From: Dehalococcoidia bacterium
Lineage (GTDB): Bacteria > Chloroflexota > Dehalococcoidia > UBA6926
Length of the DNA stretch: 64,000 nt
Assembly: GCA_963666115.2 (NCBI GenBank)
Contig: CAXXET010000004.1
Coordinates: 224,001-288,000 of the forward strand
Direction: 5' to 3'
The position numbers and the translations under genes were made by a program. This document shows positions 4,074 through 50,162 of this stretch, piece by piece (position 1 is the stretch's first letter; each line of letters opens with the position of its first letter). Below the pieces are notes generated by a model. The model saw nothing but the letters and a program-made list of their open reading frames with translations. It did not search any database and had not been told where the DNA came from.

Positions 4074-4167
4074 GTCCCCCGCCCCGTTGGCGTGTAGGTT
4101 TGGTTCAGGGGCATGATGGCAGGCGCTCAACCAGGCCGTCTATCCGATTTCTCTGTGGAGGTCAGAC

Positions 4168-11013: not shown

Positions 11014-14000
11014 TCAGTCCTCGCCAATGCGCAGGGTCTGGCCCAGGGCGAGCGTATTGTACATGCGGACGACGAATGCCGTGGCGGCGACGAATACGGC
11101 GGCCATGAGCGCGTAGACGATCCCGATGGAAACGGCGCTCGTCTCGATGATGTAGGGCGGCAGCACGGCGACGCCGTCCTGCGTCCGGTCGAGGAACGGC
11201 ATCAGCAGCGCGCCGGTCCTCTGGCCAAGCAGGAATCCCGCCCCGATTCCGATGCCGACGACCAGCATGTGTTCAAACCAGACAACGGCGCGAATCTGCG
11301 GGCCGTTGAGTCCCATCGTGCGCAGCAGTGCGAACTGCCTGCCGCGCTCTCCAACCGTGAGGATGGAATGCGCCACGAAGCACGTGCCGCCGAGGAACAG
11401 AACCGCGCCGTAGGCCACCAGCAGCAGCGCGCCCCACCCTGCCGCGACGAGCGGATCGGCCTGCGAGGCGGCGATCAGGTCCCTGCGGTCGATGATATTG
11501 TTGGCGCCGACGGATTCCATGATGCCCCGGAGCGCCTCGGTTCGCTCGTCGCCCGTCAACCCCTCGTCAAGCCGGTACCAGACCTCGTTGGCCTGCGTTT
11601 CCTGTCCCTGGCCGACGAGATTCTGGTGGCGCAGGAGGCCCTGTATCTCCGTGATGACGTAGCCCGCGCCCTCGGTTAGGTTCATGGTGGGGAAGAAGTC
11701 AACGACATCAACGATTGTGCCGGGAACGCGCGCGCTGCCCACGCCGATATCGAGGATATCGCCGACACGGAGGCCGGAGGAGCGCAGAATGCCGGGGCTG
11801 ACCAGCATGGGCAACTGGTAAACCTGCGGGCCTGCGTAGAAGCCGCGCTGGACGAACGCCGTCGTCGCGCCCCAACTGAACAGGAGCGACGGGCCGCCGT
11901 CGCGCCCCGCGCCGCCAAGCAGTTGGAGAGAATCCGTCCGCGTGAGAGGCCCAATCTGTATGACGGCCAGGTCATCCCTGCCGGTGAACCGGCGGACGGA
12001 AACCGGCTCGGAACCCTCTGCGACCGTTCGCGTCATGATTTCGTCGACGTAGAATGCGCCGCCGGACATGCCCTCCGAGCGGGAGCGCTGCACGATTTGG
12101 AGAGAGACGAGGGTAAAGGGAGCGGCGGGCTGAATCGTGGGAACGGAACGCCCCCACGAACGGCGGCGGATCGGCTCAAGGGCGGCCTCGCGGTAGCTCC
12201 AGTCCGTGCTCTCCAGTGCGCCCAGGAATATGGTGAAGAAACGGCCGTTGCCGTCTTCGATGGTGGCAGTCAGGTTGGAGAGAGGATCGGGCTGCTCGGC
12301 GCTCCGAACCCACAGTCCCATGTGGCGGGCGTCGTCGGGCAGCCGAATGCCCCAATTCTCAATGGATTCACCACCGACGGCGTCCAGTGTTTCGTCGAGG
12401 GAGTTTGAGGCGAAATCGTCACGCCACCACGTCACGTTCTTGAGGGTTGGCGCGTCAACAGCCAGCGCCTCGAACCTGTCGGTGGATGACCCCGCAGCGA
12501 AGCCGGCGGAGGAGCGAAAGACGCGGGCGGCAGCGGCGACTCCATCCGGGGATTCGACGAGCGCTTGCATGTCCTGTGTCGGTCCCTGGCTGTTGGCGAT
12601 GGCGGCGCCGACGATGCGGGCGTCCGCCCCGGCCTCGTACCGCGCGCGCTCCTCATAGCTGCGGTCGAGCGTTCCGCCGAAACTGGCCGCGAAAGCGCCG
12701 AGCCCTGCGGCTAGAACGAGAAGCAGTACCAAACGGGTAACGGACAGCGGATTGCGCCCAACCTGCCAGAGGCCGAGCGCGAGCCACGTTGGGGATACGG
12801 GGGCGGCGATGCGCGCGACGAGGCCGCCGATGAGCGGCAGCACCCGCAGCAGGAGCAGGCCGGCAGAGAGCAGGAACAGCGTGGGGATGAGCAGCAAAAA
12901 CAGGTCCGCCCCCTGCTGGCCGGAGAGGGCGTCCGCGACCAACGATCCTTGCTGGCCGAGCTGCCAGAGGAAGATGAGTCCTGCGACGGCAAGTCCCACG
13001 TCGAGGTAGTAACGCTGGACGAATCCGACCTGGTTGGGTCGGACGATGAGGCGCCGTTCCTCAAGGAGGTTGCGGCGGGCGAGACGGAGGGTCGGGATGA
13101 GAAGGACGGCAAAGGCGAGCAGGCCCCCCACTCCCGCAAGGGCGAACGCTAAGGGGGAGACAGAAACGCGCAGCGGACCGCCGTCGCCAAGCGCAGAGAA
13201 TACGGGCAAGAATCCGATGCTCGCGATCAGTCCGGCCGCAATGAACGGGGCGGCGACGGAGGCGGCGGCAGTGACCAGCAGCCCCTGGACGGCGTAAATC
13301 TGGAGCACCTGCGGGGTTCGCGCGCCGCGGCTGCGGAGGAGGGCAGCATCCGCGCGCTGCCTGTCCGTGACAAGTCCGGCAAGGAACACGATGGCGTACA
13401 GCACCATGGCCGTCACGAGGAAGAGCATGATGGCGATGGGCGCTTCGATGAAGCGGATGCGTGTGTCATAGGTATTCAGCACGTCATCGAGTTCGGTGGT
13501 CTGCCGGTAGCTGTCCACGGAGCCCCCGAGCCCGCCGTTGAGTCCGGCAATGGCTCTGGCAAACCGCTCAGAATCCGCGGCGCGGATGTCATACGGGCTT
13601 GTGTAGTAGCGCGAGTAAAAGGAGCCGTCCGCCTTGAGGAACAGCGAGCCGACAGTGTCAACAAGCGTCTCAGCGGGAACGATCACGGGCAGCGTGCTCA
13701 GGAGCGTTGGTTCTCGCACAAGCCGTTGGAGGGCAGGCGCGTCCCAGTAGTGGGAGTCAGGATCGACGGGAACGGCAAAGCCCGTGATCCGGACGTTGAT
13801 CTTGCTCGTCTTGTCCTCCCAGAAGGGAACGAACGGCACGGTATCGCCGATCTCAAGGCCGAGATACTCCGCGCCCTGCCTCATGGCGACGGCCTCCACG
13901 GTCACGACGCCGTCAACCGTTTCGACCGCGCCCGGCTGCGCCATGCTCTCGATCAGCGCGAGGAGCTTCTGATTCGAATTGAGGACGTGGAACGTGGCAC

Positions 14001-20660: not shown

Positions 20661-21971
20661 CTAACCGGTTCGGCGCGAGGGGTGGGATTCCGGCAGGAGG
20701 ATGCCGATTAGTCCTACTGTGACTGAGACGGGCAGGACGATGAAGAGGGCTGTTGCGAGCGAGCCTGTCCCCTCTTGCAGCACGCCCGCAAGAATCGGGC
20801 CGATGGTGGAGCCGAGAGGGGTGATCGTCCGGATAAGCCCAACCGCCACCGCAACTTCGCGCGGGCGGAACTGCATGTCGAACGGCACTGTCATGATCAT
20901 CGGCACCACCGAGGACGTCATCATCCCTTGCAAGACCAGGAACGGCAACAGCGCCAGCGTCCATGAATCGCCCGACAGGAAACTATCGGGCAGCCACGCT
21001 ATCAGGGGGTTGTCGGGGCCCATTGACAGGATGGTCAGGTAGAGGACGGGCATGATGAATCCCTGGATGAAGATGAACGGCTTTCGCCGCCGCACCCAGT
21101 TGGATAACGGCCCGACGCTGAGCGAGCCAATCGTGCCGCCGATTGGGAACGCGGAGAACAGCAGGCCCACCGTGATCAGCGACAGCCCATGCTCCTCCTG
21201 CGCAAACGTCGGGAAGAACGTCACGAACGTCGCCCACGCCATCGCGCCGCCGAACTGTGTTGAGGCAATGACGAAGAGAATTGGATGCCGCTTGAGCACG
21301 CCCGCCGGGCCGCCCGGCGTCCCGTCGGCCCGCAGCGCGGCGGGCGGCATCTCCGTTGCCGAAGATTGGTACGGACGCTCGCGCCCAACGATGAACCACA
21401 CGATTGCGACGCCGGCATAGACGACAGCAAGAAGCAGGTGGATACCCCGCCACCCGCCAACGTGGGGCATGAGTATCGGCACAAGCCCGATGGCGGCCAA
21501 TTGGCCGATTCCGAAACTCGCGACCGTAATGGAATTGAGCGTGGCGATGCGCGGTCCGCTGAACCACTGCTGGATCAACATCACCTCCGCCTGCGTCCTG
21601 GACACAAGCGCGTACATGAACATCAGCCTCGCCGCCAGCAGTATCCAGTAGTTCGGCGCGATGCCCTGCAAGACCGCGGTAATCGTCATGCCGATAAGCG
21701 CCAGCAAGGTCACGAGGCGCGGGCTGAACCGCGACATCCAGATCGCGGACGGCAGGGAGAGGGTGGTCAGCGCGACGAAGAATGCAGACCCCAGGTAGCC
21801 CTCCTCGACGGGCGTGATGTTGAACTCTTCGCGGATCTCCGGCAGGGTCAGCCCGATCAGGAAGATCATCACCGTGGACGTGCCGTCCACCGCCCACAGG
21901 GCGGACATGACGACCCACCCGGTGCGACGGGTGTAAGCCGGAGACTGTGCGGCGGCCCCGAGGCCGCTCAT
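20661..21971 (-). CDS. MFS transporter
   Basis: About 12 TM segments with MFS-like spacing; last gene of the thiolase-DUF35 operon. Confidence 0.85.
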   Translation of the reverse strand: MSGLGAAAQSPAYTRRTGWVVMSALWAVDGTSTVMIFLIGLTLPEIREEFNITPVEEGYLGSAFFVALTTLSLPSAIWMSRFSPRLVTLLALIGMTITAVLQGIAPNYWILLAARLMFMYALVSRTQAEVMLIQQWFSGPRIATLNSITVASFGIGQLAAIGLVPILMPHVGGWRGIHLLLAVVYAGVAIVWFIVGRERPYQSSATEMPPAALRADGTPGGPAGVLKRHPILFVIASTQFGGAMAWATFVTFFPTFAQEEHGLSLITVGLLFSAFPIGGTIGSLSVGPLSNWVRRRKPFIFIQGFIMPVLYLTILSMGPDNPLIAWLPDSFLSGDSWTLALLPFLVLQGMMTSSVVPMIMTVPFDMQFRPREVAVAVGLIRTITPLGSTIGPILAGVLQEGTGSLATALFIVLPVSVTVGLIGILLPESHPSRRTG

Positions 21972-21978
21972 CGATGAA

Positions 21979-22413
21979 TCACGCAGGCTTGAACTTCACC
22001 AGCGTCCACTCGGGCGTGATGTCGTCATACACCGCGACGACGGGCATGTTCACCTCAACGTCGTGCGGCTCAATGCCGATCACGTTGGAGATCATCCGCG
22101 CCCCCTCGTCCAATTGGATGATCGCGTACACATACGGCACGTCCTCGTTGAACCGCGGATCATTCGGCTGGTAGACGATGGTAAAGGCGTGGACGCGCCC
22201 GCGCCCAGAAACCGGCGCCCATTCAAGGTCGTCGGACAGGCAGGCGGGGCAAAGCTCGCGCGGGTAGAAGAAGAACCTGTCGCACATGCGGCATCGTTGG
22301 ATCACCAGCTCGTGCCGCTTCGTCGCCTCCCAGAACGGCTTGGTGAAGTCCCCCAGCGTTGTGCCGTGCAACCCACCCGGAATCGGCAGCGGCTTTGTAT
22401 ACTCAGTCGTCAT
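21979..22413 (-). CDS. Zn-ribbon/OB-fold protein (DUF35 family), thiolase partner
   Basis: PFWEA..RHELVIQRCRMC...YPRELCPAC, SGRG, PYV.AIIQLDEG.RMISN. Confidence 0.92.
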   Translation of the reverse strand: MTTEYTKPLPIPGGLHGTTLGDFTKPFWEATKRHELVIQRCRMCDRFFFYPRELCPACLSDDLEWAPVSGRGRVHAFTIVYQPNDPRFNEDVPYVYAIIQLDEGARMISNVIGIEPHDVEVNMPVVAVYDDITPEWTLVKFKPA

Positions 22414-22422
22414 CGTTTCATC

Positions 22423-23580
22423 CTAGAGCGCGGCCTCGGACCCGAGGACCAGGGTGGCCATACTGGACACCGTGCCGCCTCAACCGTTCACCAAACACAG
22501 GTCGTTCCGCTCAACCTGCCGAACGCCGCCCCGCCCCATGATCTGCCGCGTCGCCTCGATCACGTGGCGGAACCCGCCCGCGTCGCCGGGCTGCCCGCAT
22601 GAGAGCTGGCCGCCGTCCGTGTTGATCGGAAACTCGCCCTTGTACGTCGTATCCGTTGACGCGAAGAACGGGCCGATGTCGCCCTTGGGCACAAGCCCCG
22701 CGTCCTCAAGGCACACGGCATGAAGGATGGTGTAGCAATCGTAGAACTGCGCGAACTCGATGTCGGACGGCCCGTACCCCGCCATGCCGAGCGCGATGGG
22801 CGCGGAGCGCGTCACCACCGAGCGCGTTAGTCGTTCCCGCTGCCAACCCGACAGCGGGTCGCACGCGATGCCCGCGCCCAGGATGTACACAGGCTTGTTC
22901 TTGAGCGATTTCGCTCTCTCGGCGGACGTGAGAATGATGGCCGACCCGCCCGCGCACGGCATCACGGACTCCAGCAGCCGGATCGGATAGTTGATATACC
23001 GCGAATTGAGCACGTCCTCGATGGTCAGCGGCTGCCCGCGAAACACCGCGTTCTCATTCTCCAGCGCGTTGAAGCGTTGGTTCACGGAGATATTGGCCAA
23101 CTGCTCCTGCGTGGTGCCGTATTCGGCCATGTGGCGGGAGTACATGAGGCCGTAGCCGGTGTTCGCCGCGACGGCGGGGCCGTAAGGGTCTTCAAATTCG
23201 GTTCGCAGCCCCGGCGTGGCAGGACTGCCCCACGGGCTGCCCGCCTGCCGCGCCTCCGACAGCGTGACGAGGACGGTGGTGGCGAGCCCCGAGTAGATGG
23301 CCATCGCCGCGACGGACGTCGCCGTTGCCCCGCTCGCGCCCATCGTGCTGACGCCGGTTACGAAGTTGGGGTTGAGGCCCATGTATTCGCCGATGGGAGC
23401 GGGATAGAAGCTGCCGCCCTCAACGACGAGCCCGTCGATTTCCTCCTTGCGGATGCCCGCGTCGACAATCGCGTCGCGCGTCGCCTCCGCCATCAGCCCC
23501 AGGGCGGTGCGCCCCTCATAGGTGCGGCGCGTCGGCATCTCCGCGAAGCCCACAATCGCCGCTGCGCCTCGCATCGTCAT
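22423..23580 (-). CDS. SCP2/Ltp2-type thiolase-fold protein, 385 aa with an in-frame TGA at 22480-22482 (candidate selenocysteine)
   Basis: Family motifs YDCYT and INTDGGQLS. The frame continues after TGA as GGTVSSMATLVLGSEAAL-TAG, the expected final beta-strand, and ends 9 nt before the DUF35 ATG. Confidence 0.85.
22453..22471 (-). promoter_or_regulatory. Candidate bacterial SECIS element of the thiolase gene
   Basis: GGUG-U-CCA-GUA-UGG-C-CACC hairpin starting 9 nt after UGA; loop G at +17. Confidence 0.55.
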
Positions 23581-23689
23581 GACTCACCCCCAATCCACAT
23601 GATACTCACCATGCGCGTTGATGAGACTAGAGTTTACACTGAATAGGGATGCTTGTGCGCCCACATTTCTGTTCACCCGGGTGAGGGAC

Positions 23690-25402
23690 ATGACTCCGTC
23701 TGCCGAATTCGTTGACCTGATCCAGATTCTCGGTGTCGCCACCGTTGCGGCCGTTGCCGCGACGCTGCTGCGACAGCCGATTGTCGTCGCGTTTATCTTT
23801 GTCGGCGTCTTCGTCGGCCCGGCCGGCATCGACATGGTGCCTGCGGATTCTGAGTTCGTTGACCTGTTCGGGCGCGTGGGAATTGCACTGCTGCTCTTCG
23901 TCGTCGGCCTGAAGCTCGATCCCGCGCTCATCCGCACAGCCGGTTTCGTTGCCGTCGTCTCCGGCCTTGGACAAGTGATCATCACGACCATCATCGGTTT
24001 CCTGATTACGTTCATCTTTGGGGTCGATCTCCTGTCGGCGCTTTACATCTCGCTTGCGCTAACGTTCTCGAGCACAGTCATCATCGTGAAGGTTCTCTCC
24101 GACCGGCGCGAGATCGACTCACTCCATGGGCGCATCGCGCTCGGCATCCTGATCGTGCAGGACATTGTCGTCATCGTTGCCCTCACCCTGCTGTCCGGCC
24201 TCGAAGGGGCGGAGAGCGCCGAGTCGACCCTCCAGCAGTTGGGGCTGAGCGTGCTGCGCGGGGCGGCGCTTGTCGCAGCCATGATCATCATGGCGCGATT
24301 CCTTCTCCCGCTCATCGAGCCGCGCCTGCTCACAACGCCTGAAGTGCTGGTTCTGGGCGGCATCGCGTGGGCCGTGCTCATGGCGGCAGGCGCAACGTGG
24401 GCGGGATTCAGCCCAGAGATGGGCGCGTTCGTCGCAGGCATCGTGCTAGCGACCAAGAGGCCGCGCCAACTGGTGGCCGCCCGCCTCACCACCGTTCGAG
24501 ACTTCCTCCTGCTCTTCTTCTTCGTGAGCCTGGGAGTTCACCTACACCTTTCCGATTTGCAGGACCAACTCCTGGGCGCGATTGGGCTTTCACTCTTCGT
24601 GCTGGTGGGCAACCCGCTTATCGTCATGGGCATCGCCATTGCAATGGGTTTCCGCGCCCGCACGGGCCTAGTTGCCGGAATGGCGCTCGCCCAGATCAGC
24701 GAATTCTCCTTCATCCTGATGGCGCTGGGGTTGGATCTGGGCCACGTGGACGAATCCAGCCTTGCCCTCGTCACGCTGGTCGGGCTGATCACGTTCGCCG
24801 CGTCCACGTACATGATCACGTACGCCAACCAGATATACAGGTTCTTGCAGCCCGTGATGAGCAAAATCGAACGCCCCGTCGCGCATCGGGAAGATGAAAT
24901 CATCGATGAGGCGGATCAGCCCGTCCAGGTTCTTGTTTTCGGAACGGGGAGGCTGGGCACCGTCATCCTCTCGCGGCTGCGCGAGATTGGCGTTGAGGCG
25001 ATGGGCGTCGATTTCGACCCCGTCGCCGTGCGGCGTCTACAGGAACTCGGATTCCACATGAGATTCGCGGATGTTGAAGCCCCGGAATTCCTGCAAGGGC
25101 TGCCCCTGTCGTCGGCGCAGATGGCGGTGTCAACTATTCGCGCGCCCGATATCGAGGTGGGACTCGTCGAGGCGCTGCGGGACAACAACTTCCGCCGCCC
25201 CGTCCTCCTGACCAGCCAATCGGCCGCGACGGCCCATCGCCTTGAAGACCTGGGCGCGACGCTTGTGCTGCTGCCGTTTGAAGCCGCGGGCGAGCGGGCA
25301 TCGGAGATGATCGAGGAAACGCTGCGCGATCCGACGTACCTGGAACGCGCCCGCTCCAGCCCGCGCGCTCCGGTGGAGGATGAGTCGCTGGAGGAGCAGT
25401 AG
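23690..25402 (+). CDS. Cation:proton antiporter (CPA2/KefC-like) with TrkA-N domain
   Basis: LLFVVGLKLD, FSSTVIIVKVL, LIVQD, QISEFSFI; VFGTGRLG Rossmann domain. Confidence 0.92.
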   Translation: MTPSAEFVDLIQILGVATVAAVAATLLRQPIVVAFIFVGVFVGPAGIDMVPADSEFVDLFGRVGIALLLFVVGLKLDPALIRTAGFVAVVSGLGQVIITTIIGFLITFIFGVDLLSALYISLALTFSSTVIIVKVLSDRREIDSLHGRIALGILIVQDIVVIVALTLLSGLEGAESAESTLQQLGLSVLRGAALVAAMIIMARFLLPLIEPRLLTTPEVLVLGGIAWAVLMAAGATWAGFSPEMGAFVAGIVLATKRPRQLVAARLTTVRDFLLLFFFVSLGVHLHLSDLQDQLLGAIGLSLFVLVGNPLIVMGIAIAMGFRARTGLVAGMALAQISEFSFILMALGLDLGHVDESSLALVTLVGLITFAASTYMITYANQIYRFLQPVMSKIERPVAHREDEIIDEADQPVQVLVFGTGRLGTVILSRLREIGVEAMGVDFDPVAVRRLQELGFHMRFADVEAPEFLQGLPLSSAQMAVSTIRAPDIEVGLVEALRDNNFRRPVLLTSQSAATAHRLEDLGATLVLLPFEAAGERASEMIEETLRDPTYLERARSSPRAPVEDESLEEQ

Positions 25403-25409
25403 CTGCCGT

Positions 25410-26012
25410 CTAGTCGATGACGCCGATGCGCGGGCGCAGGCCGCGCTCCCGGCGTGTCAGCCGGAATCCGGCGCGGGACTCCGTTCGGTCGCGCTGTTTC
25501 GCGGCATCCGCCCACCCCTCATGGGCGAGGAGGCGTTCCTTGACGGCCAGCCCGCCGCCGAATCCGGTAAGGGCGCCGTCCGCGCCCACGACGCGATGTC
25601 AAGGGACGACGACGCCGAGCGGGTTGGCGCCAACCGCCTGCCCGATGGCGCGCGCCGCCTTTGGCCTGCCGATGGCGTGCGCCACGTCACCGTATGTCCA
25701 CACCTTGCCGGCGGGAATCTCGGTGAGGGTCTGCCAAACGGCGCGCTGGAAGTCCGTTCCGCCGTCCATGTCCAGCGGGCCCGAGAGATCCATCTCCTCC
25801 CCGTTCGTGTAGCGCGCCAGCGCGTCCGCCCAGTGGTTGAGAACCTCATTGGCAGGATCGTCATGGAGGAGGCCGGGGATGTCCGCGCGCTCCTGCTCGA
25901 TGAGCGCCCGATCATCATGCGGCCCCAGGACGGCTTTCAGACCCTTTGGCGAGGCGATAAGGCCGAGGAATCCGAGCGGCGTCGAAATAACCCTGTGACC
26001 GTTAGCGTGCAT
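25410..26012 (-). CDS. ogt: Methylated-DNA--protein-cysteine methyltransferase (Ogt/MGMT), 200 aa with an in-frame TGA at 25599-25601 at the catalytic position (candidate selenocysteine)
   Basis: [15 protein letters not shown]...TYG...AARAIG.A.GANP..VVVP-[TGA][28 protein letters not shown]...TAG; homology continues in frame across the TGA. Confidence 0.9.
25571..25587 (-). promoter_or_regulatory. Candidate bacterial SECIS element of ogt
   Basis: After UGA and an 11-nt spacer: perfect hairpin GGGCGC-GGACG-GCGCCC with the loop starting at G (+18). Confidence 0.7.
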
Positions 26013-30637: not shown

Positions 30638-31333
30638 ATGAGCACCCACGATTCACACCCCAACAACCACCTGACCGCCTGCATTGTGGCGGGAGGCGAC
30701 GTTACGCCCGGCGAGCGCGTCATGGCGGTGCTGCGGGAGAGCGGCATCATCATCGCCGCCGATCGCGGGCTGAATACGTGCCTGGAGCTGGGCGTCACGC
30801 CGACGCTGTGCATCGGGGATTTCGATTCCGCGTCAGAGGATGCCATTCGGACGGCGCGTGAGCGTGGGTGGGTATTGCTGGAGTACCCATCGGAGAAGGC
30901 AGCGACGGACGGGGAACTGGCGCTGGATGAGGCAATCGCGAGGGGCGCGACGAAGATTCGGATACTGGGCGCGTTGACCGGTTCGGATCGGATGGATCAC
31001 GGGGCGGCGAACCTGCTGTTGTTGGCGCGGCCGGATTTAAGGGGAATCGACATCCGGCTGATGGATGAGAACCGGGAGGCGTTCGTTCTTGGGAAGGGCG
31101 AATCGGCGTCCGTCTCAGGCCAGCGCGGGGATTACGTGACGCTGCTGCCGCTCTCGGAGACGGGCGCGACGGTGACGACGTGGGGGCTGAAGTACGATCT
31201 GCTCGGCATCACGCTCCAGTACGGCGCGACGCGCGGGGTCAGCAATGAGCTGGTGTGGGCGGATGCGAATATCACGGTGGAGGAGGGGCGGGCGCTGGCG
31301 GTGCAGGAGCGGGTGCTGCAAACGGGAATCTAA
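30638..31333 (+). CDS. thiN: Thiamine pyrophosphokinase
   Basis: IAADRG, GDFDS, EK.ATDGELAL, R.DH..AN, GLKY.L, GVSNE. Confidence 0.9.
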   Translation: MSTHDSHPNNHLTACIVAGGDVTPGERVMAVLRESGIIIAADRGLNTCLELGVTPTLCIGDFDSASEDAIRTARERGWVLLEYPSEKAATDGELALDEAIARGATKIRILGALTGSDRMDHGAANLLLLARPDLRGIDIRLMDENREAFVLGKGESASVSGQRGDYVTLLPLSETGATVTTWGLKYDLLGITLQYGATRGVSNELVWADANITVEEGRALAVQERVLQTGI

Positions 31334-34209: not shown

Positions 34210-37200
34210 CTACCCCCGCCCACCTCTGGTGCCTGCGCGCGTGTGGCGGAACTCCACCCGTTCAATCAGGAGCGACCGTATCTCATCAAGTTTGTCCGCA
34301 AAGCCGAATTGCTTGCCGACGATTTCGTCAATGCGGAGATGGTGCTCAGTTTTTAGCTCCTCTGTGACGGGCAATGGCGATCTGTCCGCGACGCTCTTGA
34401 ACAGGGCACGCGCCTCATCGCCAAAGTCGAAATCAAAGTGGACAGGAAAGGGCTTCATGTCCGTGGCCTCCGCCTTCAGCAACCCACCTCCCAAGTTGGC
34501 CCTACCCGTGAGCTCTCTGTAGAGCCAGGCAAATGACGAGTTCATGTAGAGCCACAGGCAGTAATGCAGATCGGATTCCCAACGCCCGTCAGGCAAGTAA
34601 AGCTCTACACCACTGAATGAAAAGGCTTTGCTCTGGTTTAGGGCGCAGTAATGTCTGGTGCCGATGCCTCTAGGCATCAGGAGCGCCGGAACTTTGGAAA
34701 GCCGCGAATCGGACACATCATCTTTACGGACGTGCGCGTCCGGCTCATTGCAGCCAAACTCTGGCACGTCCACCACAACACCAATTGTGGCACCAGCTAC
34801 ATTGTGCAACTTCTTTGAGACATTGATGCCTTGCCCAAACTCAATGGTTGGCTTCTGCGGGCGTTTTTCTGAAACGGATACGTCAGCCAAGATAGCCCGG
34901 AACCAGTCGGGCATCGCAAAAAGGTGACCCCACTTCATGCCCGAGGTTATATCGATTGACCGCGTATCGGTCTGTGCCATGCTCTCATTGACGACGTGAT
35001 AGTCAATCGGCGTGTCCCTGTAGTTGCCGAAGGTGCAGACTATGGCGTTGATGTTGGGCCCGGATGCGTCAGAGAAGAACCGTGCCGAAGTATCAACGAT
35101 GCTGCGGAAGGAGAATCGCCCCTTTGTGAACTTCTGGAATACCTGACCATAATCCGAGGTAAGCCAACCGTTCTGAGTTACGAACGAAGCCGTTCCGTGA
35201 TTCGCCAAGAGTTTCGCCGCTCGCGCGAAGAAATAGATGAGGAGGTCACTGCCCCCAGCCACTGTCTCGCCCCAGTCCTTTTGTACAACACTCCTGTAAC
35301 TCTCTTTGGCGTCCTGTGCAAACAAGCTATTGCGTGCTTCAAGGTACGGCGGGTTCGCGATCACGATGTCAAAGCCGTCGCGGACTCCGAACATGAACTC
35401 CGGATCGAACCAGTCTGCCGCGTCCTGTGAGTCGGCCAGCACGCTCTGCTCCATCGGGTCCCAGTTAGCAATCTTCGATGCGCCGTCCGTTGGGAAGTCC
35501 GCCTGCATCAGGTATTGGGCAAGCAGGCCGCGGAGACGGCGATCCTCGTCGCGCAGCCGGCGCTTCTCCTGTCGCGCCGCGCCTGCGTGGAAGAATCGTT
35601 CCCGGTTGTCCAGGAGTTGCTGCTGCGTGCGGCGGACGTTCTCATCCTGGTCGCCGAACGAAAGCTGCTCGGGGCGGTCTAGGCCCAGCAGCGTATCCGC
35701 CGTGACGAACCGCGTTTCAAGGTTTGGCAGTGGGCGGATGCCGAAGTTGTCCGCCGGATCATCATTGGAGTCCTGCTCGATAGCGAGGGAGATGAAGAAG
35801 CGCAGCTTGGCGATTTCCCCCGCGTTTGGGTCGATGTCAACGCCGTAGATGCTGTTCTGGATCAGGTAGAGTTTGCGCCCAAAGTTGGACTCCTTGTACC
35901 GTTCGAACGTCCCGCTAATCTGATTCAGCGCGGCGTCCCTGTCCTGTATCTCGGATATCCAGAAGGCTTGGTCGGCCCGCGCGGACGCGATTTCACGCTG
36001 CGTTTGCTCCCATAGGGCATTGTCCGGATCCAAGCGGCGCAAAGCCAGGGTGAGCTTATGGAGGACGCCCATGGGGAACGCGCCCGAACCGACGGCGGGA
36101 TCGAGAACGCGCAGGGCCGCAATTGCGCGGACAATGCGCTCTTTCTCCGCGTCCTCAAACAACTCCCCGCCTTGCGCGTAATCGAACAGGAAGTGAAGCC
36201 GCTCCGCCCACCAGTCGTTCGGATCACCGTCCGGCGCGAGCTTGGTGAGCAGGGCGGCGACGAGGGCCTCATCCGCCATGTAATCGACGACGGGGCGGGG
36301 CGTGTAGTAGGAGCCGGCCTGCTTGCGGGCACTCTCGCCGGTCTCCGCGTTGATGGACGCCAGCAGGTTCTCAAACACTTTGCCCAACAACTCCGGGTCT
36401 AGCGCGACCTCCATATCCGTCGGTGTATTCTCCTCGACGGTGAACTTGTAGTGGTTGAAGAGCGTGATCAGCCCCTTGTCATCAAAGAAGAGGCGGTTGG
36501 GCCATGAAAGTTTGCCGTGCTCATCCGTGCCCTTTCTGAGCATGTTGTCGCTGAAGTAGTCGATGCGGTAGCCGCCGTCTCCGGCCGCCTCAAAGCTGTC
36601 CAGGCAGTCGAACAAGCCGCCGTTGATGAACGGCGTCCGGTCGAATAGCGCCCGCAGACGCGTCGGATCCGCCATCTCTTTCTCATAGCGGTACAGCGAG
36701 GTCAGGCGATGGGTCTTGTTCGCGCGGCTGCTAAAGCCGCGGTCAGCGATGCCCGTGTTCAGCGTGGCGAAGAACAGGTTCTGCAGGACGGCGCGATAGT
36801 ACGAATCGCCCTCAGCGGCGTCATAGCTCTTGAGCAGGTCCTTGATCTGGTTCTCGATGAACAGGTCCTCCGCGACGAGGCGCTTTTCCTTGATGAACCA
36901 CACGAAGAGGAGGCGTGTGATGAGTCGCAGAGTGTGCCGCTCTTTCGGCTGCTCTCTCGGCACCCCCACCGGGAACTTTGCCTCATCGATAGCGCGGTCG
37001 AACCACGCTTTGAGTTCGCTGTAGAACTTCCTGTTCAACTCCTCCGTGTCCAACTCGTCAAGCCACGCCGCAAGCAGGCCCTCAAAGTTGGGTTGCTTGC
37101 GCTCCTTATCCATCCAGTCCAGGCGCTTATCAAGCGATAGTTCGCTGATGATGTCCACGTGGGCGCGATGGGGCTTCACCGGATCAATCTCGCGGATTAG

Positions 37201-37780
37201 GGAGACTGCGCCCAGGACGTCTCGATCCGGGTTCCGTATGTTGGGGCGGCGGTGGACGAATGAGACGGTGAGGTGGCCCGTCGCTGTCCGGAAGAGGACG
37301 ACGGCGGGGATGGCGGGGAAGCGGCGGTTGACCTCCCGCGTCATGGCGGCGTAGGCGCCCCGGCGGTATTCGTCGCTCGTGAGTTCCGCAGCGACGAAGA
37401 GGAAGCTGCGTATCGAGTTGACGTCAAAGGCTGCGCCGTCCGAGAGTTTGAGACGCTGCTGCCCGCGCTCCGCGTTGATCTCCGCATCCGTGAGTTGGAA
37501 GAGCACGTGGAGGGATGAGGCATTGTTGCGCAAGAGGGTTTCATCCGCCGTCGGCGGCGTATCGGGCGGGAAGGGTTTGCCATCCGGCTTGAGGCGAGGA
37601 TACGCGGACAGGAACGCGCCCAGATCGCCCGTCTGACCCGGCGGCGTCCGGTCGCTCTTGTAGCCGAGCGTGTCCAGGAGCGCCGCCGCGCCATCGGCAA
37701 AAATCACCCTGCGATGCGTCGCGGAGCGCGTTTTGGATGGGCTGCCTCGCGGCAACCGTGTCTACTTGATTACCAGCCAT
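34210..37780 (-). CDS. Eco57I-like/type IIG N6-adenine DNA methyltransferase with target recognition domain; probable frameshift at 37699-37703
   Basis: FINGGLF, DPELLGKVFE, GSYYTP, VLDPAVGSGAF, PLPNLE, NPPY. The natural-looking N-terminus lies in another frame from ATG 37780. Confidence 0.85.
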
Positions 37781-40700
37781 GTGACAAGCTCGAAGTCTTC
37801 CTGTGTGGCGGGCGTTTCGCCGGCCCTGGGCAGGGTGAAGCCCCTGCCGCCTGTGCTGAGGCCCTGGGCGACGGCGGTTGCGCTGCTCTGCCGGATGTGG
37901 GCGATGACGGCTTCCACGAGGTCATTGTAGTGCGACATGTCCTGGCCCTGCTGCGTTTCGCGCGTGAACTCGTCAGAGAGCGCCGTGATGGGATCGGTCT
38001 TGCCGGCGGTCGCCGCGTCAAAGGCCTCCAGCGCCTGCCGCGCGTTGGCGCACCCGAACCGGATCGTGCCGTTGTCGCCGATGTAGACGAGGTAATAGGG
38101 GTGGACGGGGCTTGCGGGGCGTGAGCCGGGCGCGGGCCTGCCGGCGTTGCGCTGCTTGAGGAGGAAGATGACGCCGGGGCCGTGGGCGTCTTTGGGCGGT
38201 TCCGGGGTGACGGCGTACGCGCCGAACGGCATGTTTTCCAGCATGTCACGGTTCTTTTCCAGGAACTTCCGGAGTTGGACGAGGAAGTAGTCCATTGAGA
38301 AATCGCTCAGCACGACGCCGTCGCCCAGGTCGTCAATGTCCAGGATTTCGTCGCGCATTCGCCGCAGCTGCTCATCGCGGAACGTCAACTCCATCTGCGC
38401 GCCCTCCGCGAGCCCGGCTTCGGTGAAGAGTTCCTCGCCGCCGCCGGTGGTGTCCACGAGGGCCATGCGGGCCATGACGCGGTTCTCCAGGTCAAGGTAT
38501 TCCTGCATATTCGGCGTGGGCCAGTAGTTGATCATCCTGACGGAGGCGCTGCGGCTGCCGATGCGGTCAATGCGGCCAAAGCGCTGGATGAGGCGGACGG
38601 GGTTCCAGTGGATGTCATAGTTGACGACGGTATCGCAGTCCTGGAGGTTCTGGCCTTCCGAGATGCAGTCCGTGGCGATGAGGATATCGATGTCCTGCGC
38701 GATCGTGCCGTCGTCACGGCGGTTGCGGGCGACGGGCGCGAAGTCCGTGAGAATCTCCTGAAAGCGAGTTTCGTACCGCCCGCCGGCGTCCGACGGGGGC
38801 GCGGTGTCCCGCGTTTCGTCGCCGGCGACCATGGCCATGCGGACGCCGCGCGCCTCGGCCTCTTGCCGGAGGTTTTCGTAGAGGTAGAGGGCGGTGTCTT
38901 TAAAGGTGGTGAAGGCGAGCAGTTTGCGGTTCTCCTTACCGTCGTTGTCCGTGGTGGGTGATTCGATGCGCCGGCGGATTTGCGCCTGCAGGTCCTGGAG
39001 CTTGCCGTCGCGTTCGGGGGTGATGGCGGCGACGCGCTCACGGACGGCGTCCAACGTTTCACGATCACGCATGATATCCGCCCGCCAGCGGTCACGGTCA
39101 AGCTCATCAAGTCGGTATGGGCGGCGGGCGTGGTTGATGAGGAAGTCATCGTCGTCGCCGACGTCTTCTTCGTCCGGGGTTTCACCGGCGAGTTCCGCAG
39201 TGTTCTCAAAGCGGTCCATGCGCTCCAGCAGGTTGTCCATCTTGGCGATGGTGCGCTCCAGGGTGAGGGCGAGGGAGTGGGGTGAGCTTTCGAGGCGTTT
39301 GAGGAAGTTGACGCGGAGCATGGCGACCAGGTAGTGCTCGCGGTCACGCTGGTTGAAGTTGAATTTCGATTTCTCATCCTCCAGCTGCTGCCGGCGGTTC
39401 GGGTCATGGAGGTACGCGGACGGCTGGTAGATGGAGAGGGCGAATTGGCCGATGCGGTCTGAGAGGTCTTTGTAGGAGACGGGCTGTTGGGTGTCCGCCT
39501 CCGGGTAGGCATTGACGGGTTTTTCATGTGTGGGGAACTGCCCGATGCGCTCCATCTCTTCGGCGTAGGACTGCTGGATTTGGCGGCGGGAGCGGGCGAT
39601 GGAGACGGTACTGAGCAGGCGCTGGAACTCCGGCCCGAACTTTGCCATGAGCCCCGATTTGTCGCGGCGGACGCCGGCCTTCTTCGAGTCCTCCTCCCAC
39701 GACTTGAACTCGGCCTGGGCAGCGGCCATCACCGTGTTGAGGTTGGCGATGCTTTCCGTTTCCAGGAAATGGTCGGCACGCCCCTGCGTCATCAAGTGGA
39801 TCTGGTTGCGAAGATCGATGAGCGACGTGTTGACGGGGGTGGCGGACAGCATGAGAACCTGCGTCTGCGCCCCGTCTTTGATGATCTCCTCGAAGAGTTT
39901 CTTGTAACGCTTGCCGCCGTCGTTGCGGAAGTTGTGGGACTCGTCGATGACGACGAGGTCGTATGCACCCCAGTTGAAATCGCCGAGATCGATGTTGCCG
40001 GACCTGCCGCCATCACGGGACAGGTCTGTGTGGGCGAGCACGGTGTAGCCGAACTGATCATCCCGGAAGGGGTTGTTGAGGCGGTTGTTGTACCGGGGAT
40101 AGAGCGCCCAGTTTTCCCTGAGCTTGTTGGGACAGAGGACGAGGACGCTCTTGTTGCGGAGTTCGTAGTACTTGATAACGGCGAGGGCGGTGTACGTTTT
40201 GCCAAGGCCGACGCTGTCCGCGAGGATGCAGCCGTTGTTCCGCTGAAGTTGGCGGATAATGCTGCGCGCGCCTTCACGCTGGAATTCGTAGAGGTCCTGC
40301 CAGATGCGCTTTTCAGAGAGGCGGGTCTGCCGCGCGGCGTCCGCTTCCCTTTCCATGTCCGCGATCCTGTCCTTGAACATCTCGTACAGCGTCTTGAAGT
40401 ACACGATCTCCGGGGAGTAGTCGCGGCTGATGCGGCCCAGCGCGTCCAGCACCTCCTGCTTGACGTCGTAGGTGCGCGCCTCGTCGTTCCAGAGGTTGTC
40501 GAACCACTCGCGCAGTTCGTCGCGGAGGGCGGGATCGGGCATATCGACGTTGATTTCCAGGTTGGGGCGGGCGCTGCCACCCAGGCCGCTCCTGGTGAAG
40601 TTGGAACTGCCAACGATGGCGGCGTCATCCGTGATATACATCTTGCCGTGCAGGAAGTTGGCCTGGCGGATGGAGCGGATGTCCACCGCGCCGGCGGCGA

Positions 40701-41010
40701 CCCATTCCGCGCAGCGGCGGGCCAATTCCTTTTGATGGAGGATTTGGGTGGGCGCCAAGCCGCTGTCGGTCAGCCTGAAGTTCCGCCCCTCCGTCCGGCC
40801 GGGGTCCACGTCTTCGATGGACGTGGGATCGCCGAAGAGGAATCGCGTTTGGCCGACGTTGGCGAGCAGGTCAGCCAGCAATTCATAGCCGTAGATGCTG
40901 AAGTAGGCGGAGACGACGTCAAAGTTCGCCGCCGCGTCAAGATGGGTTCGCAGGCGATCCACCACGCGGCGGTCGGGGGTGTTATCCAGCAGGTAGTTGG
41001 GGTTGGACAC
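37762..41010 (-). CDS. PLD-nuclease/SNF2-type helicase fusion
   Basis: FLHGKMYI...GSSN (HKD-like), ADSVGLGKT, DESH, SATP, ISEGQNLQ, HWNP..LIQRFGRIDRIG. Confidence 0.9.
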   Translation of the reverse strand: MSNPNYLLDNTPDRRVVDRLRTHLDAAANFDVVSAYFSIYGYELLADLLANVGQTRFLFGDPTSIEDVDPGRTEGRNFRLTDSGLAPTQILHQKELARRCAEWVAAGAVDIRSIRQANFLHGKMYITDDAAIVGSSNFTRSGLGGSARPNLEINVDMPDPALRDELREWFDNLWNDEARTYDVKQEVLDALGRISRDYSPEIVYFKTLYEMFKDRIADMEREADAARQTRLSEKRIWQDLYEFQREGARSIIRQLQRNNGCILADSVGLGKTYTALAVIKYYELRNKSVLVLCPNKLRENWALYPRYNNRLNNPFRDDQFGYTVLAHTDLSRDGGRSGNIDLGDFNWGAYDLVVIDESHNFRNDGGKRYKKLFEEIIKDGAQTQVLMLSATPVNTSLIDLRNQIHLMTQGRADHFLETESIANLNTVMAAAQAEFKSWEEDSKKAGVRRDKSGLMAKFGPEFQRLLSTVSIARSRRQIQQSYAEEMERIGQFPTHEKPVNAYPEADTQQPVSYKDLSDRIGQFALSIYQPSAYLHDPNRRQQLEDEKSKFNFNQRDREHYLVAMLRVNFLKRLESSPHSLALTLERTIAKMDNLLERMDRFENTAELAGETPDEEDVGDDDDFLINHARRPYRLDELDRDRWRADIMRDRETLDAVRERVAAITPERDGKLQDLQAQIRRRIESPTTDNDGKENRKLLAFTTFKDTALYLYENLRQEAEARGVRMAMVAGDETRDTAPPSDAGGRYETRFQEILTDFAPVARNRRDDGTIAQDIDILIATDCISEGQNLQDCDTVVNYDIHWNPVRLIQRFGRIDRIGSRSASVRMINYWPTPNMQEYLDLENRVMARMALVDTTGGGEELFTEAGLAEGAQMELTFRDEQLRRMRDEILDIDDLGDGVVLSDFSMDYFLVQLRKFLEKNRDMLENMPFGAYAVTPEPPKDAHGPGVIFLLKQRNAGRPAPGSRPASPVHPYYLVYIGDNGTIRFGCANARQALEAFDAATAGKTDPITALSDEFTRETQQGQDMSHYNDLVEAVIAHIRQSSATAVAQGLSTGGRGFTLPRAGETPATQEDFELVTWLVIK

Positions 41011-41039: not shown

Positions 41040-42119
41040 TTACTCAAGCCAGTTTAGCAGGCGGGTTTGGGGCCAATCTATTGTGATTTGGGTGGTTGTG
41101 TTTGGGTGGGGGCGTGTGGTGGCGGTTGTGATGGGGGCGCGGGCGTGGAGGGTTTCGCCTTGGACGTCCAGCGTTACGTCGTACATGCCGCCCTGGAGGG
41201 TTACTTCGACGATTGTTGCCGATAGCGCGGGGGGGTCATCGTTGGCGGCGGTGTGGGTGTCGGGCTGGTGGAGGGTTGCGGCCTCCGGGGGGATTAGGGC
41301 TGTGCATTGGGGGGTGGCGGGGATTTCTGCGGGGCGCCAGACGCCAAGGGCGCAGCGGGCTTCGTTCGTGCCGTCCTCGCGGGTTGAGAGTTCGCAGGGG
41401 AAGAGGTTTTCGTGGCCGAGGAATCTTGCGACGAAGGGGGTGGCGGGGTTGAGCCAGACTTCTTCCGGGGGGCCGTGCTGGACGGCTTTGCCTTGCTCCA
41501 AGACGAGGATGTCGTCGGCGACGGCGAATGCTTCATCGTGGTCGTGGGTGACGTAGATGAGGGTCACGCCCTCGTGGTCGCGGATATGGCGGACCTCCTG
41601 CGCCAGCTCCTCGCGGAGGCGGCGGTCTAGCGCGCCGAGCGGCTCATCGAGCATCAGGAGGCGGGGACGGGGGGCCAAGGAGCGGGCAAGGGCGACGCGC
41701 TGCTGCTCACCGCCAGAAATGGCATCGACGGAGCGGCCGGCAAGCGGCGCAATTCGCATCAGTTCCAGCAGCTCATCGACGCGTCGTTCGATTTGCCCGG
41801 CCTCCCATCGTTGGCTGCGCAGGCCGAACGCGATGTTGTCGCGGACGTTGAGGTGCGGGAAGAGGGCGAGGTCCTGGTGCATGAGGCCGAAGCCGCGGCG
41901 ATGAGGCGGGATGCCGTTCAGCGATTCGCCGTTCATGGCGGCCTCCCCGCCGTCAGGGGTTTCAAGCCCGGCGATGAGGCGGAGGAGGGTGCTTTTGCCG
42001 CAGCCGCTGGGGCCGAGGACTGCGAGAGATTTGCCTTCGTCCAGGTTGAAGGAGACATCCGCCAGGGCGAGAGAGGCGCCGGCGTCATAACTCTTGGTGA
42101 GGGCGGTTATTTGCAGCAC
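41040..42119 (-). CDS. thiQ: Thiamine ABC transporter ATP-binding protein
   Basis: GPSGCGKS, ISGGEQQR, LDEP, VTHD; third gene after the TPP riboswitch. Confidence 0.8.
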   Translation of the reverse strand: MLQITALTKSYDAGASLALADVSFNLDEGKSLAVLGPSGCGKSTLLRLIAGLETPDGGEAAMNGESLNGIPPHRRGFGLMHQDLALFPHLNVRDNIAFGLRSQRWEAGQIERRVDELLELMRIAPLAGRSVDAISGGEQQRVALARSLAPRPRLLMLDEPLGALDRRLREELAQEVRHIRDHEGVTLIYVTHDHDEAFAVADDILVLEQGKAVQHGPPEEVWLNPATPFVARFLGHENLFPCELSTREDGTNEARCALGVWRPAEIPATPQCTALIPPEAATLHQPDTHTAANDDPPALSATIVEVTLQGGMYDVTLDVQGETLHARAPITTATTRPHPNTTTQITIDWPQTRLLNWLE

Positions 42120-42144
42120 GTGGGCTCCTGGTAATGAGTTTTTG

Positions 42145-42192
42145 GATTCTTCGCTGCGCTCAGAATGACATGTGGGGCGCTCAGAATGACAT
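42145..42192 (+). repeat. REP-like family C with a tandem partial copy
   Basis: gattct-tcgctgcgctc-agaatgacat followed by a second gcgctcagaatgacat. Confidence 0.75.
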
Positions 42193-42196
42193 TTCT

Positions 42197-43861
42197 CTAG
42201 AACTCTCCCCAGCCTCGGTAGCGGGCGCGCTCGATTAGGAAGAATCCGGCGCCGGCGACCACCATCAGCACTGTGCTCATGGCGAGGGCGCTGGCGAGAT
42301 TGGCCGCTCCCGGACGCGTCAGGTAATTCAGGATGGCGACGGGCATGGTGGTGTATTCGGGGCGATTCAGGAGGAGGGTCGCGCCGAACTCGCCGAGGGA
42401 GACGGCGAAGGCGAAGACGCTTGCGACGAGGATGGCGCGGGACAGGATGGGGAGGTCAACGCGGGCGGCGGCGGCGAGAGGGCTTGCGCCAAGCATCCAC
42501 GCGGCCTCACGCAGATGGGGGCGGATGGCTCGCATCGTCGACAACACCACCCGTATGACGAACGGGTACGCGATGAGGGTGTGGGCGAGGATGATGGGGA
42601 CGACCGTGGTTCGCACGTCGAACGCGCCGATCCTCAGGCTGAGCAGGTAGCCGAGGCCGAGCGTGACGGCGGAGACGCCGAGCGGCAGCATGTACAGGGC
42701 GTCCAGCGGGTTGCGCCACCACGCGCGGGGGTTTCTCAAGCCGTACGCGGCAAGGACGCCGAGCGGGACGGCGAGAACGACGGTCACGGCGGCAAACGCA
42801 AGCGAGTTCCTTATAGCGTTGACCGGCGAGATGTAGAAATACTCGTTGCGGTCGTTGGACATGATGGCCGTGTAGCCGTCCAGCCCAAGCCCGTCCGGCG
42901 TGATGAATGAGCGCAGGAGCAGGGCGAGCGGCGGCGACAGGACGAGGAACACGGAGGCCAGCGCGCCAAGCCGGATGATGTAGTCCGCCGGGGAACGGCT
43001 CGCGGACGCAGTTGCGCCCTGGGCGCGGAGTCGAATGCGGGTCACAGCCGCCGACTGGAGCTTGACGTACGCCCACAACATGCCGAACGTCGCAATGAGT
43101 TGGGTGAGGGCGAGGGCGGCGGCAATGTGGGGCCTGAACAGCTTTGTCATGAGTGTGTAGATTTCCACTTCCAGCGTTGCGTGCTCAGGCGCGCCGAGGA
43201 TCAGGATGATACCAAAGCTCGTGAAGGTGAACAGGAAGATGAGCGCGGATGCGGCCGCCACCGCAGGCAGCAAAAGCGGCAGTGTCACGGTGAAAAAAAC
43301 GCGGCGGGGCGACGCGCCCAACATGGCGGCGGCCTCCTGCACCGCCGGATCCATGTTCGCCCAGAACGTGGAGAGGAGGCGCACGACGATGGCGTACTCA
43401 TAGACCACGTGGGCGATGAGGATAATCGCGAACGTGTTAAGGAGGTTGACGGGAGGCGCGTCGAATCCGAACAGGCCCGTCAGCGCGTCGTTGAGCAGGC
43501 CCGACGGGCCGAGGAGGGAGAGCAAACCAAGCGCCATGACGATGGGGGGGAGGATGAACGGAATGGTGATCGCGGCAAGGAGCGCGCTCCGGCCCCGGAA
43601 CCGGTGGCGCGCGAAGACGTAGGCGGACGGCAGGCCGAAAGCGAGAGCGAGGACGGTCGATAGAGCCGCCTGCCCTACCGTAAAGGCGAAGCGGCCCCGG
43701 AGGTAGGGATCGCTCGCGGCGTCGACGAACGGCGCGAGTATGCCCTGCCCGTCCCACCCGAGGCCGACACGCATGACGCTGACAAGCGGCCACGCGAACG
43801 CCACCAGCAGGAATCCCAGGGGCAGGCCAATCCGCGCAATGCGCCACACGCCCGCCATCAT
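42197..43861 (-). CDS. thiP: Thiamine ABC transporter permease
   Basis: Two EAA loops (QEAAAMLGA, REAAWMLGA); FTSFG and SLGEFGA. Confidence 0.85.
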   Translation of the reverse strand: MMAGVWRIARIGLPLGFLLVAFAWPLVSVMRVGLGWDGQGILAPFVDAASDPYLRGRFAFTVGQAALSTVLALAFGLPSAYVFARHRFRGRSALLAAITIPFILPPIVMALGLLSLLGPSGLLNDALTGLFGFDAPPVNLLNTFAIILIAHVVYEYAIVVRLLSTFWANMDPAVQEAAAMLGASPRRVFFTVTLPLLLPAVAAASALIFLFTFTSFGIILILGAPEHATLEVEIYTLMTKLFRPHIAAALALTQLIATFGMLWAYVKLQSAAVTRIRLRAQGATASASRSPADYIIRLGALASVFLVLSPPLALLLRSFITPDGLGLDGYTAIMSNDRNEYFYISPVNAIRNSLAFAAVTVVLAVPLGVLAAYGLRNPRAWWRNPLDALYMLPLGVSAVTLGLGYLLSLRIGAFDVRTTVVPIILAHTLIAYPFVIRVVLSTMRAIRPHLREAAWMLGASPLAAAARVDLPILSRAILVASVFAFAVSLGEFGATLLLNRPEYTTMPVAILNYLTRPGAANLASALAMSTVLMVVAGAGFFLIERARYRGWGEF

Positions 43862-43869
43862 GTGGCCGC

Positions 43870-44993: not shown

Positions 44994-45031
44994 GCTCATT
45001 GCAATCCGGAAACGCCGGGGCGTTTCCGCAG

Positions 45032-50150: not shown

Positions 50151-50162
50151 GGGAGGGTGAGC

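Follow-up and report, generated by a model that had tools for sequence, protein, structure and literature searches.

Two in-frame UGA codons as probable selenocysteine sites in a Sal-like thiolase-superfamily gene and an MGMT gene of a Dehalococcoidia bacterium

We analysed a 64,000-nt stretch of DNA from a Dehalococcoidia bacterium (UBA6926; assembly GCA_963666115.2, contig CAXXET010000004.1, positions 224,001-288,000), hereafter the window, in which two genes on the minus strand each contain an in-frame TGA codon, with 3.1 kb between the two TGAs. The upstream gene (26012..25412, terminator TAG 25411..25409) has 200 codons and was identified through Pfam, NCBIfam and solved chains as Ogt/MGMT, a DNA-repair alkyltransferase. 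The downstream gene (23580..22426, terminator TAG 22425..22423) has 385 codons and, judged by its translation, its Pfam match and its best solved relative, encodes a thiolase-superfamily protein nearest to the retro-aldolase Sal; it is called the Sal-like gene below. An initial annotation, made from the letters alone, had drawn attention to two unrelated genes with one in-frame TGA each. This was borne out: the TGAs are codon 367 of the Sal-like gene (22482..22480, minus strand) and codon 138 of the MGMT gene (25601..25599, minus strand), and in both genes homology and Pfam matches continue in the same frame through the TGA.

TGA367 is the sole in-frame TGA of the Sal-like gene in the window, and its context is VNG-U-GGTVSSMATLVLGSEAAL followed by the terminator, U being the residue at the UGA. 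The Pfam domain Thiolase_C_1 (PF22691) matched residues 243-380 and so crosses the codon, and the best solved relative, 9myr_A (CtSal), aligned with residues 2-379 at E 1.3e-78. A second position of note, in view of its relatives, is codon 282 (22735..22737, minus strand), which is TGC in the window, encodes the Cys of a YDCY motif and corresponds to Cys304 of CtSal.

The TGA of the MGMT gene falls at the residue of the P-C-H-R motif that accepts the alkyl group. It was aligned to the PCHR active-site Cys of the solved Ogt/MGMT chains 4bhc and 4wxc, and the motif in the window reads P-U-H-R. PF01035 matched residues 87-166 across the TGA with E 2.4e-35, and TIGR00589 also matched the gene product; apart from its TGA, the gene reads as an ordinary Ogt/MGMT gene. 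Among the best 120 protein clusters retrieved with the MGMT protein, 39 stop at ...VP with a length of 137-138 residues, and 79 have PCHR. Beyond the point where MGMT domains usually end there is a basic, conserved C-terminal tail of about 33-35 residues (25412-25510, minus strand), which MGMT relatives of the Cys form (49-59% identity) also have. The window carries an Ada-type alkyltransferase paralogue as well (2982-4130, minus strand), composed of an Ada zinc domain, an AraC helix-turn-helix domain and an MGMT domain. Its PCHR site is encoded by TGC, which is not followed by a hairpin of the kind found in the TGA-containing MGMT gene; therefore, this genome keeps a Cys form beside the putative selenocysteine (Sec) form.

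To follow the Sal-like gene at the DNA level, species-representative genomes were scanned against the family alignment, which confirmed 299 places; from these the top 80 were retained, making up 78 loci (L001-L078). All but one of these (77/78) are titled as Dehalococcoidia, SAR202 or Chloroflexota/Chloroflexi/Chloroflexia metagenome-assembled genomes (MAGs), the remaining one being a 1.5-kb contig labelled Rhodospirillaceae. Codon 367 was TGA in 78/78 loci and never TAA, TAG, TGC or TGT. Codon 282 was TGA in 37 loci, TGC in 36 and TGT in 5, and it was the only other place at which an in-frame stop occurred. On a FastTree phylogeny of 93 rows, built with both codons masked, at least eight Sec/Cys switches were counted at codon 282. 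The terminator of the gene itself was TAA or TAG in 77 of the 78 loci. For the 18 codons after TGA367, the entropy among related loci was 0.43, 0.30 and 0.89 at codon positions 1, 2 and 3, respectively; because variation sits mostly at third positions, this stretch is evidently translated. Of the 78 loci, 14 have the MGMT gene upstream of the Sal-like gene, and all 14 of these syntenic loci keep the MGMT TGA together with 62 conserved residues after it.

The same picture emerged from the protein databases, where the read-through Sal-like protein was used as query and the best 120 clusters were analysed. The initial annotation had warned that standard gene calling would truncate such genes, and indeed 97 of the 120 clusters end at ...VNG, immediately before codon 367; seven others end at ...FYD before codon 282, and two are fragments. 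Where a source gives a name to the clusters that end at 367, it is 'thiolase family protein' or 'acetyl-CoA acetyltransferase'. The remaining 14 clusters are full length without a stop, and their residue 367 is Asn in 12, Cys in one and Ser in one. Position 367 varies across the wider family, sampled as 150 representatives at 50% identity, with Asn in 26 and Thr in 18, followed by Val, Gln, Phe and Ser; Cys is not among the commonest residues there. Position 282, for its part, is Cys in 58 of the 150. Since position 367 is variable and Cys is not among its commonest residues in the wider family, Sec367 appears from these alignments to have been gained in this clade alone, at a non-Cys position. 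Cys homologues thus align with the UGA of the MGMT gene and with codon 282 (TGC or TGT in 41/78 loci), and only weakly with codon 367; exchange between putative Sec and Cys is thus seen at two of the three sites.

We then examined the RNA downstream of each UGA. The consensus for the bacterial selenocysteine insertion sequence (bSECIS) is described as a stem-loop 16-37 nt after the UGA, with G among the first two loop bases, a loop of 3-9 nt and a folding energy of at most -7.5 kcal/mol (PMC13188914). Hairpins were found where the initial annotation had placed them, with the loop G at the 17th base after the UGA in the Sal-like gene and at the 18th in the MGMT gene. The MGMT hairpin (25571..25587, minus strand) consists of a 6-bp G+C stem closing a five-base loop (GGGCGC / GGACG / GCGCCC), the first loop G being the 18th base. 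All MGMT sequences (15/15) fit the bSECIS consensus, with a spacing of 17 nt and energies of -12.7 to -19.0 kcal/mol, against a background of 17.5% at other codon positions.

TGA367 is followed by two hairpins. The first, H1 (22453..22471, minus strand), occupies RNA positions 12-30, counted with the U of UGA as 1; it has a stem of 4+3 bp, a GUA loop at positions 20-22 and an energy of -7.7 kcal/mol in the window. Among relatives its apex falls at bases 20-24 from the U, and 78.1% of the cells of the alignment are paired, with a register that differs between clades; in other clades the hairpin at the same place can reach 9 bp, in another pairing register. The second, H2 (22432..22449, minus strand; RNA positions 34-51), was absent from the initial annotation. 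It has the loop GGUC, 37 nt after the UGA, and fits the bSECIS consensus in the window at -10.6 kcal/mol. Over 68 distinct sequences, 95.6% of H2 cells are paired, the loop is GGUC or GUUC, and pair 36-49 shows compensatory change (UA in 31, CG in 30, UG in 4). Site 367 therefore differs from the bSECIS consensus in having two conserved hairpins instead of one. Overall, 74 of the 78 sequences fit the bSECIS consensus at site 367; among 24,179 control codon positions taken elsewhere in these genes, the share was 19.2%. Shuffling of synonymous codons gave a mean z of -2.66 at this site, with 68% of sequences below -2, compared with -0.26 for control windows.

Codon 282 offered a comparison within one family, as the same 11 candidate pairs could be scored in TGA forms and in Cys-codon forms. 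These were paired in 82.1% of cells in the former versus 64.5% in the latter; pair 15-31 was formed in 94% versus 22%, and pair 16-30 in 100% (GC in 17, CG in 12) versus 38%. A G stood at the second loop base in 32/32 TGA forms. The stem at this site is mostly interrupted by mismatches and so fails the 4-bp rule. Thus, hairpins lie at SECIS distance and decay once the codon has turned into a Cys codon.

Elsewhere in the window TGA acts as an ordinary terminator. As the initial annotation had stated, the genes for MoxR, the DUF58 protein, RNase PH (rph) and DUF35 end at TGA, and their in-frame extensions are short or low in G+C at third codon positions (GC3); the exception is MoxR, where the extension past TGA is simply the DUF58 gene, which follows in frame. 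Among heuristically called open reading frames (ORFs) of this window, which has 64% G+C, the terminators were TAG in 29, TGA in 12 and TAA in 10. A genome-wide reassignment of TGA was therefore rejected, owing to these ordinary TGA stops.

Considered jointly, the constant TGA, the constrained frame downstream and the hairpin that follows support the site-specific recoding proposed initially, and we put the probability that both UGAs are genuine, conserved sites of Sec-type recoding at roughly 0.8, on comparative sequence evidence. In this scheme tRNA-Sec and SelB would read each UGA, directed by the hairpin after it, and the MGMT protein, which repairs DNA in a suicide reaction, would carry Sec in place of its alkyl-accepting Cys. 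In favour of the assignment, tRNA-Sec has been reported in Chloroflexi (PMC5389517). Several observations weigh against it. The machinery itself did not turn up: ARAGORN found no tRNA genes in the window, tRNA-Sec included, and no tRNA-Sec in loci L001-L060 (L061-L078 lay outside that scan), and a tblastn search with E. coli SelA, SelB and SelD gave no match in the window plus the 78 loci, an uninformative negative, since these are gene flanks only and amount to about 1.3 Mb. No SECIS family of Rfam matched the window at gathering score. The window's own hairpins were no better than those of dinucleotide shuffles (z -0.8 and -1.1) or synonymous shuffles (z -0.79), and therefore the case rests on conservation in relatives (TGA in 78/78 and 14/14). 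In addition, the upper stem of H1 has only 3 bp in the window, the 37-nt spacing of H2 is the largest that the consensus allows, and a formal bSECIS pass at site 282 was obtained for 13/37 TGA forms versus 8/41 Cys-codon forms. Site 367 is also nearly devoid of Cys homologues (1/120 clusters), which is unusual for a selenoprotein. Finally, the loci are kin, and counts across the 78 are not independent events.

Recoding by Sec had to be weighed against other readings of the two codons. Cysteine might be inserted at the UGAs by a selC*/SelB* system, in which a tRNA-Cys resembling tRNA-Sec decodes opal codons with the help of a dedicated SelB-like factor; such a system has been published (PMC5389517), and the free exchange of TGA with TGC and TGT at codon 282 would suit it. 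If UGA meant Cys, however, drift to Cys codons would be expected, and codon 367 is TGA in every one of the 78 loci and the MGMT codon in all 14. Moreover, the groups for which selC* is reported in the consulted part of that source are Firmicutes, Thermodesulfobacteria, Nitrospirae and delta-proteobacteria, Chloroflexi being named there for tRNA-Sec and not for selC*, and Sec-MGMT is a listed selenoprotein family. We regard cysteine insertion as improbable. Still less credit is due to the idea that the UGAs are true or leaky stops, giving truncated products or low-level near-cognate read-through while the hairpins modulate termination. It agrees with the use of TGA as an ordinary terminator elsewhere in the window and with hairpins that are not significant there on their own. 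Against it, truncation would deprive the MGMT protein of its acceptor residue and the rest of PF01035, and a Sal-like protein ending at codon 282 would lose Gln325, Gln330 and Gly369; the sequence beyond both TGAs is under constraint at the protein level; and the codon is always TGA, never TAA or TAG, with codon 282 exchanging with Cys codons only.

The initial annotation had named random nonsense codons as the finding that would undo its proposal. A single base change does make TGA from TGC or TGT, so nonsense mutations or sequencing or assembly errors in decaying genes were considered. Yet no TAA or TAG and no stop besides those at codons 367 and 282 was seen within the Sal-like genes, codon 367 and the MGMT codon are TGA in 78/78 and 14/14 independently assembled relatives, respectively, and 97 and 39 of the respective best 120 protein clusters end at codon 367 and at the MGMT TGA. 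These genes have no in-frame stops elsewhere, and other genes of the window give full-length Pfam matches. Decay or error is thus the least credible of these readings, with a likelihood close to nil.

What the Sal-like enzyme does was approached through its solved relative. 9MYR is CtSal of Comamonas testosteroni, described as a retro-aldolase for beta-hydroxyacyl-CoA side chains of steroids (bile acids), whose catalytic residues are Tyr302 and Cys304 of YDCY; mutagenesis of CtSal is reported, and the Cys304 thiol was found to be indispensable (PMC12329534). According to the same source, the thiolate is flanked by Gln347 and Gln352, Gln161 and the Gly391 amide make up the oxyanion hole, a Gly stands at the place of the thiolase nucleophile, and the partner is the DUF35 domain of Shy. 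Residues were mapped by a HMMER alignment offset by 24 residues, which reproduces four of the residue numbers given in that paper. By this mapping, Tyr280, Cys282, Gln325, Gln330 and Gly369 of the window protein correspond to CtSal Tyr302, Cys304, Gln347, Gln352 and Gly391, respectively, while Ala139 takes the place of Gln161 and Sec367 that of Thr389, two residues before the oxyanion-hole Gly391. The family alignment shows no variation at F279, Y280 or D281. Because codon 282 is aligned with CtSal Cys304, the codon that is TGA in 37/78 loci is that of the Cys indispensable in CtSal.

A true, thiolytic thiolase was ruled out for this gene because the nucleophilic Cys and the catalytic His are both absent. 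The place of the nucleophilic Cys, located by alignment to 7yvy, is taken by Gly81, which does not vary in the family alignment and is Gly in 130/150 representatives, and the protein has G-Q-P instead of the G-H-P of 7yvy. In CtSal, the loss of the nucleophile Cys and of the GHP His is said to make thiolytic cleavage impossible (PMC12329534). With true thiolases of the SCP2 and classical types, the Sal-like protein shares the superfamily, the C-terminal domain PF22691 and the Cys of the HDCF/YDCY loop; it differs from them in these two catalytic positions. By its register to the oxyanion-hole Gly, the U-G-G of the Sal-like protein coincides with the C-x-G motif of classical thiolases, Sec367 standing where that motif has its cysteine. 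The steroid aldolase TcLtp2-ChsH2(DUF35) (6OK1) resembles the Sal-like protein in its fold, in pairing with DUF35 and in the catalytic Tyr of Y-D-x-F/Y; unlike it, the window protein has YDCY for the YDHF of Ltp2 and Gln330 for its second catalytic Tyr344, and the match is much weaker (E 1.7e-33). The closest resemblance is to CtSal, with the YDCY Tyr and Cys, the two Gln beside the thiolate, the Gly at the nucleophile place, the oxyanion-hole Gly and the DUF35 partner all retained. The differences from CtSal are Sec for Thr389, Sec for Cys304 in 37/78 relatives, Ala139 for Gln161, and a DUF35 protein encoded here by a separate small gene that is not fused to a MaoC hydratase.

The initial annotation had assigned the two UGAs to alkyl and acyl transfer. 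The alkyl part agrees with the position of the MGMT TGA at the alkyl-acceptor Cys. The acyl part was not supported, since the 'thiolase' is no acyl-transfer thiolase (Gly81, GQP; nearest to the CtSal retro-aldolase). Instead, the Sal-like enzyme is a nucleophile-less member of the thiolase superfamily, nearest to the beta-hydroxyacyl-CoA retro-aldolase Sal, and probably works with DUF35. Sec367 would sit in the oxyanion-hole loop (U-G-G) beside the Tyr280/Cys282 dyad, in which Cys282 itself would be Sec in many relatives, and the selenol or selenolate could serve as acid/base or as nucleophile on an acyl-CoA enolate or thioester during C-C cleavage. This functional proposal, C-C cleavage of a coenzyme A thioester with the help of a selenol(ate), is tentative, and we place it somewhat below even odds; the retained Sal-type residues speak for it, and the loss of the Sal-type Gln161 side chain, replaced by an Ala139 that is nearly invariant in the family, counts against it.

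The competing possibility is that a redox-active selenenylsulfide or diselenide links residues 282 and 367 and acts as a switch or a reductive centre. Both chalcogen residues lie in loops that line the CtSal active site, both are Sec in 37/78 loci, and most known selenoproteins are described as redox proteins (PMC13188914). A thioredoxin-like fold and CxxU or UxxC motifs are lacking, however, the catalytic set of CtSal is kept, and full-length homologues with Asn367 retain Cys282, showing that this Cys works without a partner. A redox pair is on balance unlikely, though it carries appreciably more weight than any of the alternatives to Sec given above. Because a single active site would carry either two Sec residues or one Sec and one Cys, the non-redox use asserted initially may not hold for the Sal-like enzyme. 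For the wider proposal, we see the chances as evenly split: marine Dehalococcoidia and SAR202 bacteria may possess widespread, uncatalogued selenoenzymes of the thiolase superfamily, with one or two active-site Sec residues (at the Sal catalytic Cys and at the Asn/Thr site), that serve C-C cleavage of CoA thioesters and not thiol-disulfide redox chemistry.

The two genes stand differently with respect to what is already known. Sec-MGMT, with ABB14497.1 as representative, is one of the 119 selenoprotein families and subfamilies tabulated in PMC13188914, and it is listed for the GOS and Olavius-symbiont data sets as well (PMC2398784, PMC1976440). The MGMT gene of the window agrees with that family in its PF01035 domain and its single Sec, the site being assumed to be the same one, here the TGA at the PCHR acceptor Cys; it differs in coming from a clade of Dehalococcoidia MAGs with the conserved basic C-terminal tail. 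For MGMT, then, nothing is new except the clade. For the Sal-like protein, no thiolase, aldolase or lipid-transfer entry is present in parts 1 and 2 of the three-part selenoprotein table of PMC13188914, and the words 'thiolase' and 'acetyltransferase' are absent from its main text, as are 'thiolase' and 'aldolase' from the main text of the BSepDB paper (PMC13326102). NCBIfam release 20 has no selenoprotein-specific model that matches it, and a literature search, with subscription journals outside its coverage, found no description of a thiolase, aldolase or SAR202 selenoprotein. The Sal-like protein is thus most likely, as far as its sequence can tell, a new selenoprotein family served by a known kind of system.

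An 'expanded selenoproteome', the broader claim of the initial annotation, was not supported in that form. No further convincing TGA-interrupted gene was found among 1272 crudely called genes of the window and the locus flanks, examined for C-terminal and N-terminal extensions with a home-made codon score that would miss weak cases; the one addition was a tandem Sal-like copy, described below. The BSepDB paper counts 46 and 49 selenoprotein genes in MAGs of Dehalococcoidia (PMC13326102), and therefore a large selenoproteome in Dehalococcoidia is not new.

If the Sal-like reading is correct, an enzyme of the C-C lyase type would join a list of selenoproteins dominated by redox proteins, and Sec would replace a catalytic acid/base Cys whose thiol is indispensable in the solved relative. 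The family would also provide a natural series for studying selenium in non-redox catalysis, with Asn, Ser, Cys or Sec at position 367, Cys or Sec at position 282, and at least eight switches. Pipelines that seek only Sec/Cys pairs in known families would miss the Sal-like family. Public annotation cuts the Sal-like proteins at 366 or about 281 residues and the MGMT proteins at 137; as a result, broken models of both enter the metabolic reconstructions of these abundant bacteria.

The surroundings of the Sal-like gene were compared between the window and four other loci. The DUF35 gene (21979..22413, minus strand), which encodes a Cys4 zinc ribbon and an OB fold (Pfam zf-ChsH2 and OB_ChsH2_C), lies 12 nt downstream of the Sal-like gene and is the sole neighbour kept in 4/4 of the other loci. 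A transporter gene of the MFS type (20661..21971, minus strand; Pfam MFS_1) follows 7 nt downstream of DUF35; beside the Sal-like/DUF35 pair it was not conserved in the four other loci, and it is likely an operon member in the window's clade only. No steroid-catabolic neighbours were found among the window genes assigned by Pfam or in these four loci. In loci L023-L028 and L062-L068, a tandem was observed at about 11760-12915 in locus coordinates, in the order two-Sec Sal-like gene, DUF35, second two-Sec Sal-like gene; in L026 a second DUF35 gene comes after the second Sal-like copy. Genomes with the tandem also carry a one-Sec copy elsewhere, giving up to five putative Sec codons of the Sal-like family per genome.

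Other features of the window were recorded as well. A TPP (thiamine pyrophosphate) riboswitch at 45019-45135 (minus strand, 58.2 bits) is the sole Rfam match at gathering score; it lies upstream of an ABC transporter operon (41040-44937) comprising a solute-binding protein, a permease and an ATPase, and a thiamine pyrophosphokinase gene is located at 30638-31333. Within 34210-41010 (minus strand), a gene for an Eco57I-type restriction-modification methylase (1181 aa) adjoins one for a helicase with SNF2 and PLD domains (1082 aa), and the pair looks like a defence module. The 32.2-34.2 kb interval before this pair has no high-GC3 ORF. In L056 a similar SNF2/PLD gene adjoins the Sal-like gene. 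A 1041-codon ORF of high GC3 (54488-57613, minus strand) had no Pfam match at E 1e-5. On the plus strand, positions 50157-50815 hold a Phd/YefM antitoxin gene and a PIN-domain toxin gene that overlap by one base.

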